From assembly GCF_016903815.1 (NCBI RefSeq), contig NZ_CP069973.1: a DNA stretch of 64,000 nucleotides; one strand, 5' to 3'. This document shows positions 37,608-40,989 of this stretch, piece by piece. Below the pieces are notes generated by a model. That model had not been told where the DNA came from. It saw nothing but the letters and a program-made list of their open reading frames with translations, and ran no database searches. Source of the stretch: Escherichia coli. Its GTDB lineage: Bacteria > Pseudomonadota > Gammaproteobacteria > Enterobacterales > Enterobacteriaceae. Position numbers and translations under genes: made by a program. Numbering within the stretch: position 1 is the stretch's first letter; every line of letters begins with the position of its first letter.

Positions 37608-38747
37608 TTACCAGTTATGAATGTCGCTGGCTGTATCCGTCATGTAACGGACACCGCTAATAGTTGGCAGCAACTGATTGATCAGACGGTTCCAGCGGGA
37701 AACCGGGGCGGTGGTGACATACACCACGTCATAAGGTTGCAGGCGGAATTCTGTCGCCATCACCAGCGACGTCGCATCGGACATATCCAGCTGGTAGATA
37801 TTGGCAATCTTGCCGTTACGCCCGCCCTCGCCTTTCAGCGGACGAATGACAAAGATGCCGCTGGCGTTGGAGGTGGTCATGTCGATACCTTCGGCATTGC
37901 CCAGGGCTTCAGTCAGGGTCATGCCGCTAAAGTCCATTTTCAGGGTGCTCTGTTTCTTCACTTCACCCATCACAAACACTTTCAGATCATCATTACGCGG
38001 CACGTAGAGAATATCGCCGGGGTAAAGCAGTCGGTTCTGATTGAGGTCGCCGTTTTGCATCAGCGCCTGCAAAGAAATGCGTTCTTCACGACCATTGTGT
38101 GTTAGCACCACGTTGCGCCAGTCAGCGGTGTCGGTCAGGCCACCTGCGGCGTTGATGGCGTCGAGAATGGTCAGTGGTACGTTGGTGATCGCCTGTTGAC
38201 CGGATTTATTCACCTGACCTGAGATATAGGCCTTTTGCGAGCGGAAGGCGGCGATATTAACATCCACCTGCGGGTCAGCGATGTACGTCGCTAAGCGCCC
38301 GGTAATATCACTGCGGATTTCAGCGAGCGTTTTCCCGACTACGTGGACCTTGCCGATATACGGGTAAAACATAGTGCCGTCAGGCTGTACCCAGTTGCCG
38401 GTGTCGCTGGAGCTGCGGTACTGACCGGCTGGCGTGGTGAGTTCCGGGTGATCCCAGACGGTGACATTCAGAACGTCGCCCGGCCCGACGCGATACTGGT
38501 AATTCGCGATCTCACTTTCCAGCGTCATATTGGGGCGCGCTACATTCGGGCGTGGGCGTAATTGGTCAATCAGGCGCGGGGTCAGCGGATAAACATTCAC
38601 CATTTTGTCGAGATCGAAATCAGCGTCCTGCTGTTTGATGACGTCTTTGCCCATCGTCGACATATTGCTGCCCGGAAGTACTGTGCAACCGCTTATCAAG
38701 GTTACTGACACCAATAATGGCATCAATTTCATTTTGGATTTCATCAT
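37608..38747 (-). CDS. wza: Outer membrane polysaccharide export lipoprotein Wza
   Basis: 379 aa; lipobox LISGC; first gene of the cps operon. Confidence 0.9.
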
Positions 38748-38925: not shown

Positions 38926-38937
38926 CACGCTACCGCC
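38926..38937 (-). promoter_or_regulatory. ops element (GGCGGTAGCGTG) within a JUMPstart sequence in the wza leader
   Basis: Exact CACGCTACCGCC on the plus strand, about 180 bp upstream of the wza start; the same 21-mer context (cacgctaccgcccctggcttt) recurs at 13264. Confidence 0.75.
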
Positions 38938-39405
38938 CCTGGCTTTTTAGCTACCAATACACTGATTTAGCTTAATTTTTAAAACCCTCTCAACATACAG
39001 TCGTTGATGAGAAAGGGTTATTGCGGAAATTAACTTCCGAATATAAGGTGACATTATGGTAATTGAATATTGGCTCTCCAATAATGCAGGAGGAAGTGTT
39101 ACAGCTAACGGAATAGCAGGCAAGGTAACAATTCGGTAATTGGCTATTTTTAAGAATTATATTAAGTGTCATTCAATATGGTTTTTAGGAGTTTCTTTAG
39201 GTTGACAATATTTAATATTGCGCCTCCACATGCGATATTTCTTAAATAATGTTTTATTATTACCACTTTTAATTCAGGGATAATGTGAGGTTATTACCCT
39301 CAAATAATATGAGATAAATAGTGCTGCAACATTGCATTTTTGCCCCGATTTATCCATGATCGAATTGTGACATTTGTCATACAACGAATAGGTTTTGTAC
39401 TTACT

Positions 39406-40989
39406 ATGGAATGGATTGCCGATCCGTCTATCTGGGCCGGGTTAATCACGCTGATTGTGATCGAACTGGTCCTCGGCATTGATAACCTGGTCTTTATTGC
39501 CATCCTCGCCGAAAAACTACCGCCGAAGCAGCGCGACCGCGCACGGGTTACCGGGCTGCTGCTGGCGATGTTAATGCGCCTGTTACTGCTGGCGTCAATC
39601 TCCTGGCTGGTCACCCTGACGCAACCGCTGTTCAGCTTCCGCTCGTTTACCTTTAGCGCCCGCGACTTAATCATGCTGTTTGGTGGTTTCTTCCTGCTGT
39701 TCAAAGCCACGATGGAGCTGAACGAACGGCTGGAGGGGAAAGACAGCAATAACCCCACGCAACGCAAAGGTGCGAAGTTCTGGGGGGTGGTGACACAAAT
39801 TGTGGTACTGGACGCCATCTTCTCACTCGACTCGGTGATTACCGCCGTCGGGATGGTCGACCATTTACTGGTCATGATGGCCGCCGTGGTTATCGCTATC
39901 AGCCTGATGTTGATGGCCAGCAAGCCGTTAACGCAATTTGTTAACAGTCACCCGACCATCGTTATTCTCTGCTTAAGCTTCCTGTTGATGATTGGCTTTA
40001 GCCTGGTGGCAGAAGGTTTCGGCTTCGTCATTCCGAAAGGCTACCTGTACGCTGCCATTGGTTTCTCGGTGATGATCGAGGCGCTCAATCAGTTGGCTAT
40101 CTTTAACCGTCGACGTTTTCTTTCCGCTAACCAGACACTGCGCCAGCGGACTACCGAAGCGGTAATGCGCCTGCTTAGCGGGCAAAAAGAAGATGCGGAA
40201 CTGGACGCCGAAACCGCGTCCATGCTGGTGGATCATGGTAACCAGCAGATCTTTAATCCGCAGGAACGGCGGATGATTGAGCGGGTACTTAATCTTAATC
40301 AGCGTACCGTCAGCAGCATTATGACGTCGCGCCACGATATTGAGCATATCGATCTCAACGCGCCGGAAGAAGAAATCCGCCAGTTGCTGGAGCGAAATCA
40401 GCATACGCGGGTGGTGGTTACCGACGGTGATGACGCAGAAGATTTGCTCGGTGTTGTTCACGTTATCGACCTGCTACAACAGTCTCTGCGCGGCGAACCG
40501 CTCAACCTGCGGGTGTTGATTCGCCAGCCGCTGGTGTTCCCGGAAACCTTGCCGTTGTTACCTGCCCTGGAGCAGTTCCGTAATGCCCGCACGCACTTTG
40601 CTTTTGTAGTGGATGAGTTTGGCTCGGTGGAAGGGATTGTGACATTAAGTGACGTCACTGAAACCATTGCCGGTAACTTACCGAACGAAGTGGAAGAGAT
40701 CGACGCCCGCCATGATATTCAGAAAAATGCGGACGGTTCCTGGACGGCGAATGGTCATATGCCGCTGGAGGATCTGGTGCAATATGTGCCGCTGCCGCTG
40801 GATGAAAAACGTGAATATCACACCATTGCCGGGCTATTGATGGAATATTTGCAGCGTATTCCAAAACCTGGCGAAGAAGTTCAGGTGGGGGATTATTTGC
40901 TTAAAACGTTGCAGGTGGAAAGCCATCGCGTGCAGAAGGTGCAGATTATTCCGCTGCATAAGGATGGCGAGTTGGAGTACGAGGTGTGA
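39406..40989 (+). CDS. yegH: TerC-family membrane protein with CBS and CorC/HlyC-like C-terminal domains
   Basis: Start trimmed to [13 protein letters not shown] (527 aa); TerC-like TM region followed by paired CBS domains. Confidence 0.85.

Follow-up and report, generated by a model that had tools for sequence, protein, structure and literature searches.

A conserved candidate Rcs operator between the published RcsAB box and the core promoter of wza in Escherichia coli

The wza-yegH intergenic region

The 64-kb stretch of Escherichia coli DNA that was analysed (the window) contains wza, the first gene of the colanic-acid operon, and its divergent neighbour yegH (TerC family), which are separated by a spacer of 658 bp (Table 1). 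Control of colanic acid by the Rcs system is textbook capsule regulation and reporter fusions to the wza promoter are a standard Rcs read-out; both the Rcs regulation of wza and the operator designated box B below have long been known. Activation of wza by RcsA and RcsB was described earlier (PMC2478693).

The spacer could be aligned without gaps to that of K-12 MG1655 (99% identity), and all elements discussed here are identical between the window and K-12. In K-12 coordinates, box A is found at 2137647-2137660, box B at 2137682-2137695 and box C at 2137727-2137740. A stretch of 721 bases around the candidate site showed 100% identity to strain 7/2 and was present in 4,831 of 5,426 complete genomes, where it is annotated as the wza-yegH spacer. 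The leader of wza carries a JUMPstart RNA element, and the ops sequence within it is found about 190 nt before the wza ATG in almost all of the 80 wza loci that were collected (see below).

In the initial annotation, an imperfect RcsAB-like sequence was placed at about 39145..39165, some 400 bp upstream of wza and in AT-rich surroundings. The string concerned, tttaagaattatattaagtg, is present on the + strand at 39149-39168, a shift of about 4 nt, and the 14-mer within it that resembles an RcsAB box (box A) is located 404-417 bp from the wza ATG, with the conserved core promoter and the JUMPstart-bearing leader in between. The GC content is 30.8% over 39100-39300 and 49.2% over the whole window, in line with the description, and the placement upstream of the Rcs-activated wza promoter was borne out as well. 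The sequence can be read on the + strand as annotated, but the informative orientation is that of the wza sense strand (-), on which TTCTTA is directed towards the promoter, like the corresponding half-site of box B.

In many E. coli genomes RefSeq has a 'hypothetical protein' of 49 codons annotated in the spacer (WP_162829205 in strain A17). The matching frame in the window (+ strand, 39056-39205) meets a stop after 27 codons. Because the 49-codon ORF would span boxes A and B as well as the core promoter of wza, its annotation is probably an error.

Table 1. Genes and sequence elements around the wza promoter (positions in the window)
Feature	Position	Strand	Sequence or remark
wza, first colanic-acid operon gene	37608..38747	-	ATG at 38747
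JUMPstart RNA element, wza leader	38926..38964	-	Rfam RF01707, 57.3 bits, E = 2e-12
ops within JUMPstart	38937-38930	-	GGCGGTAG
Putative wza core promoter	39095..39123	-	Placed from conservation
Box A, extended conserved block	39147-39166		CTTAATATAATTCTTAAAAA
Box A (candidate site)	39151..39164	-	TAATATAATTCTTA on wza sense strand; TAAGAATTATATTA on + strand
Box B, published RcsAB box of E. coli wza	39186..39199	-	TAAAGAAACTCCTA, then AAAA
TGTCAA	39202..39207	-	2 bp upstream of box B; each base in 74-76 of 76 species
Box C, distal third box-like element	39231..39244	-	TAAGAAATATCGCA; family form TAGGAwATATCGCA
yegH, divergent neighbour of wza, TerC family	39406..40989	+	

The published box and the candidate site

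The RcsAB box of the E. coli wza promoter was reportedly defined by Wehland and Bernhard in 2000, presumably at -452 to -439 from the ATG, which agrees with the position of box B. In Table S1 of PMC4381331, a compilation that draws on the original papers, the box is given as TAAAGAAACTCCTA (TAAGAAACTCCTA with a leading T) and it is the single box listed there for wza. The proposal that the candidate site represents the RcsAB box of wza could therefore not be upheld: the published K-12 box is located at 39199-39186, 35 bp further upstream and without overlap with 39151-39164, and apart from its final bases it is outside the interval 39100-39200 to which the proposal referred.

Read on either strand, box A agrees with the RcsAB consensus TaAGaatatTCctA in 10 of 14 positions, including five of the six capital positions (T1, A3, G4, T10, C11 and A14); the deviating capital is G4 (replaced by T) on the wza strand and C11 (replaced by A) on the + strand. 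Box B yielded the same counts (10/14), which means that the consensus criterion cannot separate the two sites. Box C matches at 9 of 14 positions, with all six capitals. A search of the 658-bp spacer for the consensus with at most three mismatches returned zero sites. Random sequences of spacer composition contain on average 1.5 sites with at least 10 matches, and 71% of them hold at least one such site. A match of 10/14 is thus expected by chance in this AT-rich spacer and the consensus count alone is uninformative.

We also scored the spacer with a weight matrix derived from the 13 published RcsAB boxes of PMC4381331 Table S1 other than that of wza. Box A was the top match (13.7 bits, inside the range of 13.2-19.1 bits of the training boxes), followed by box C (11.9 bits) and box B (10.9 bits), and the next location scored 8.3 bits; the published box thus scores below the candidate site, and the spacer holds no better match than the sequence initially annotated. 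A score of at least 13.7 bits was reached in 3% of random spacers (P = 0.03) and 0.1% of random AT-rich spacers contained three separate sites scoring 10.8 bits or more. With the background frequencies of the spacer itself box A drops to 9.5 bits and the three boxes become near-equal (9.5-10.6 bits). The matrix result for box A is therefore above chance, but borderline and dependent on the background. In the whole 64-kb window box A is the third-best position of the matrix.

Conservation across the Enterobacteriaceae

A scan of one genome per species resulted in the 80 wza loci mentioned above, from genera that include Escherichia, Salmonella, Citrobacter, Enterobacter, Kosakonia, Lelliottia, Franconibacter, Atlantibacter, Trabulsiella, Cedecea and Buttiauxella, among others. 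For 75 of these loci and the window (76 sequences) we aligned the 330 nt upstream of ops. At most aligned positions the E. coli base was found in 0-40% of the species, and the conserved blocks are sharply bounded: they comprise the core promoter, box A, box B together with TGTCAA and, less strictly, box C.

Box A has the family form cTTAATATTAwTCTTAAAA. Within TTAATAT.A.TCTTAAAA each base is present in 70-76 of the 76 species (the first A in 66), apart from two variable positions, and in mean column information the 18-nt segment 39165-39148 ranks second: ops scores higher, the core promoter and box B lower. By its conservation box A is clearly more than a chance resemblance. The orthologs of box A have a median matrix score of 14.3 bits and 95% of them score at least 10 bits; the corresponding figures are 12.4 bits and 63% for box B, and 10.7 bits and 55% for box C. 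In Franconibacter, which has the most divergent promoter, TCTTAAAA is kept and the left half of box A is lost. Position 7 of box A (39158, - strand) is an A in three Escherichia sequences (TAATATAATTC) and a T in 73 of the 76 sequences (TAATATTAwTC). The box A-like sequence upstream of E. coli rcsA (see below) also has an A at this position.

The family form of box B with its upstream part is TGTCAAyA-TmAAkAAAwTCCTAAAA, in which the right half (TCCTAAAA) is invariant and the left half variable. The TGTCAA motif may be an extension of the RcsAB contact region; the published boxes of yjbE and rcsA lack it. Box C was found conserved in roughly 55-60 of the 76 species.

The core promoter and the spacing of the boxes

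A scan for the sigma-70 consensus gave one weak promoter-like site alone (39080-39053), for which reason we relied on conservation to position the core promoter. RegulonDB has a sigma-70 promoter and a predicted sigma-E promoter at wza (PMC9764084). The family consensus of the core is cCTTGCCTGctatt.g.TTAGCTGcAACAATtctt, with the end part also given as TTAGCTGcAACAAT. In the reading that we prefer, a -35 hexamer TTGCCT (39123-39118) would be followed by a 17-bp spacer and an extended -10 element TGtAACACT (39103-39095; family form TGcAACAAT), with transcription probably starting near 39087. Alternatively, TTGTTA (39131-39126) could serve as the -35 and TTAGCT (39108-39103) as the -10 hexamer. 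The motif TTAGCTG (39102-39108, - strand) does not vary between genera, an unusual degree of conservation for what is presumed to be promoter spacer. Its TG may be part of the extended -10 element; the other option is that the alternative promoter has its -10 region here.

Measured from the putative -35 hexamer, the centres of boxes A, B and C lie about 37, 72 and 117 bp upstream, which would put them near -70, -105 and -150 for the preferred promoter and near -61, -96 and -141 for the alternative one. The conserved block of box A ends 27 bp upstream of the preferred -35 hexamer (19 bp for the alternative promoter). With either promoter, box A would be situated where class-I activators act. 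An A/T block at about -59 to -38, as in an UP element, was not found at box A: there is a gap of 19-27 bp to the putative -35 hexamer, and the block contains an invariant C.

Wherever box A and the core-promoter motif TTAGCTG could both be placed (57 species), they were 46-47 bp apart. Boxes B and A could both be placed in 67 species, of which 63 have a distance of 34-35 bp and four one of 32 bp. The half-site TCYTAAA of box B lies 54±1 bp from the beginning of box C in 43 of 45 cases; in the window boxes C and B are 45 bp apart from start to start. The distance from box A to ops varied between 203 and 241 bp and that to the yegH ATG between 133 and 395 bp, even though yegH adjoins in 76 of the 80 loci. 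The spacing is thus fixed relative to the wza promoter and variable relative to yegH and ops, which indicates that the boxes belong to the wza promoter.

Half-sites and resemblance to other Rcs sites

The identity of box B and the specificity of RcsB for its half-sites are known from the literature, in which RcsB was found to contact G, A and A in the half-sites TTAGGAA/TCTAAGA (PMC5829831). On the wza strand box A reads TAATAT-AA-TTCTTA, followed by AAAA, and thus carries a perfect RcsB half-site (TTCTTA, complement TAAGAA) that faces the promoter. The right half with the adjoining A-tract is TCTTAAAA in box A, TCCTAAAA in both box B and the yjbE box, and TCCGAAAA in the rcsA box. In most species the left half of box A is TTAATATTAA, a perfect 10-bp palindrome, unlike the left halves of the published boxes. 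An A-tract is present directly 3' of the published boxes of yjbE (TCCTAAAA; L084 643-660, upstream of K-12 yjbE) and rcsA (TCCGAAAAA; L083 405-423, upstream of K-12 rcsA), as it is for both wza boxes, and this 3' extension is missed by the 14-bp consensus. The good half-site of box C points away from the promoter, unlike those of boxes A and B.

Boxes A and B thus have much in common: they share the promoter, strand and orientation, an RcsB-type right half with A-tract, a score of 10/14 without the G at position 4, and conservation across the Enterobacteriaceae. They differ in that box B was defined experimentally, whereas box A is a candidate, in that box A is the more conserved of the two (at least 10 bits in 95% of its orthologs, versus 63% for box B) and has a palindromic left half, and in that box B is preceded by the invariant TGTCAA, which is lacking at box A.

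Box A also resembles the RcsB homodimer boxes, for instance the flhDC box TAGGAAAAATCTTA, in its 14-bp layout of two half-sites, one of which is perfect (TAAGA/TCTTA). The other half, however, has TAATA in place of TA[A/G]GA and so differs at a base that is contacted, and lacking G4 on the wza strand and C11 on the + strand, box A falls outside the strict homodimer motif TN(G/A)GAN4TC(T/C)NA (PMC7913699) by one base per strand (T at position 4 on the - strand, A at position 11 on the + strand). Activator sites for RcsB without a partner usually abut the -35 hexamer (PMC5651002), unlike box A, which ends 19-27 bp upstream of it.

A parallel was found upstream of rcsA, whose promoter is autoregulated by RcsAB and where the RcsA-RcsB sites consist of two boxes, the first of which ('box1') lies over TGAATTGCCATTAATATA (PMC11879457). 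In K-12 the published rcsA box is TAAGGATTATCCGA (L083 405-418) and 33 bp upstream of it we found TTAATATAATTC, which is identical to box A over 12 of 12 positions and sits in the place of 'box1'. The two promoters, both activated by RcsAB, therefore share this 12-mer as well as a canonical box at a similar distance from it (33 bp for rcsA, 35 bp for wza). The order is reversed, with the A-like box distal at rcsA and proximal at wza, and the A-like box of rcsA has TTCCGT as its right half, lacks the A-tract and scores 7.6 bits. A 12/12 match in the rcsA region arose in 13 of 300 randomisations, marginally beyond chance. A wider likeness of 28 nt between the region of box A and the YdaT-protected region of rcsA (TGAAT.-n6-AATATA) was also considered and rejected, as it arose in 52 of 300 randomisations and is not conserved outside Escherichia. 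Given the 13 of 300 for the 12-mer and the absence of significance for the wider similarity, the rcsA parallel is supportive rather than decisive. In a search for RcsA homologs, aimed at rcsA promoters from other genera, the matches listed were all E. coli variants. Likewise, a scan of metagenomes with the rcsA box pattern gave 120 matches that are mostly due to chance, and those bearing rcsA were from E. coli alone.

A promoter-proximal Rcs site and the alternatives

On the basis of the sequence comparisons we lean, with some reserve, towards box A being a promoter-proximal Rcs operator that acts together with the published box B, as part of an array of three boxes. We counted in favour of such an array that the three best matrix locations of the spacer (A, C and B) are at the same time the conserved blocks upstream of the core promoter. 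Phosphorylated RcsB would then occupy the TTCTTA half-site of box A, facing the promoter, and RcsA or a second RcsB would occupy the degenerate half TAATAT; the resulting complex and the RcsAB heterodimer at box B would jointly recruit RNA polymerase. What the comparisons show is the sequence of box A, its matrix score, its conservation and its rigid spacing; that box A is bound, that the boxes cooperate and where they lie with respect to the start of transcription is what we infer. A literature search yielded no report of protein binding at box A.

The main competing explanation, which we regard as unlikely though by no means negligible, is that box A is functional for a reason other than Rcs, for instance as the site of another sequence-specific or architectural protein, or as a DNA-bending or UP-like element needed by the wza promoter. 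The palindromic left part TTAATATTAA, which is unlike the published RcsAB left halves and could belong to another protein, and the A5 tract that follows box A would both fit this explanation, as would the fact that the published compilation (PMC4381331) gives box B alone for wza and the lower specificity of the matrix score at high AT content (9.5 bits with the spacer background). Against it, the invariant part of the block includes TCTTA, an exact RcsB half-site that is kept even in the most divergent species, and the ending TCyTAAAA is common to box B and the boxes of yjbE and rcsA. Moreover, 19-27 bp separate the end of the block from either candidate -35 hexamer, a distance not usual for an UP element, and the consensuses of IHF, Fis and CRP do not fit box A when compared by eye.

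Two other explanations were given very little weight. That box A is a functionless chance resemblance, or that its conservation is due to regulation of yegH, a small ORF or an RNA, appears very unlikely. A 10/14 match is indeed expected by chance in the spacer, an ATG-started ORF of 60 codons runs on the wza strand from 39172, and the RefSeq 'hypothetical protein' is annotated in the spacer of many strains. The block is nevertheless near-invariant in 76 species with flanks that are not conserved, and short conserved blocks between variable stretches with 1-nt indels form a non-coding pattern; the frame of the RefSeq hypothetical CDS (from 39056) is moreover interrupted in the window, as described above. 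Regulation of yegH is argued against by a distance that is fixed to the core promoter of wza but ranges from 133 to 395 bp to yegH, and an RNA by the Rfam match, which is JUMPstart alone and located elsewhere. The remaining explanation, that the candidate site is itself the operator of Wehland and Bernhard, is hardly credible. Box A is the best matrix match of the spacer and equals box B in its consensus count of 10/14. The identification was ruled out by Table S1 of PMC4381331, in which the box is TAAAGAAACTCCTA, a sequence that does not overlap box A; both sequences are identical in K-12.

Implications for the regulation of colanic acid synthesis

If box A is a real Rcs site, the picture of the wza promoter as one with a single operator would fall short, and a different behaviour would be expected of promoter fragments or engineered promoters in which 39147-39166 is missing or changed. 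The practical consequence is limited, in the sense that a known regulatory region is refined and the mechanism is not new.

A broader model, which we put forward tentatively and consider possible rather than probable, is that the colanic-acid promoter is driven by a rigid three-box Rcs array in which the proximal box is the most constrained, and that the A-type box also occurs at rcsA. If this holds, the array would be conserved from Escherichia to Buttiauxella and Cedecea, with TTAATATTAwTCTTAAAA as its so far unreported proximal box. Induction of the capsule would then need a higher-order assembly of RcsA and RcsB, which could explain its switch-like behaviour and its dependence on the dosage of RcsA. 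The conserved proximal box is absent from the compilation in PMC4381331; the original papers or RegulonDB may mention it.

Rcs-like sites elsewhere in the window

We also observed two high-scoring matches to the matrix upstream of ugd, a gene that is Rcs-regulated in Salmonella. These are TAAGTTAATTCTGA (13.6 bits) and TAAAGAAAATCTGA (15.0 bits), found at 96-109 and 198-211 on the - strand. Both are located within about 125 bp of the start of ugd (start codon around position 86, - strand) and both belong to the four best positions of the matrix in the 64-kb window. A transposase gene of the IS200 family is annotated in this stretch, beside gnd and ugd.
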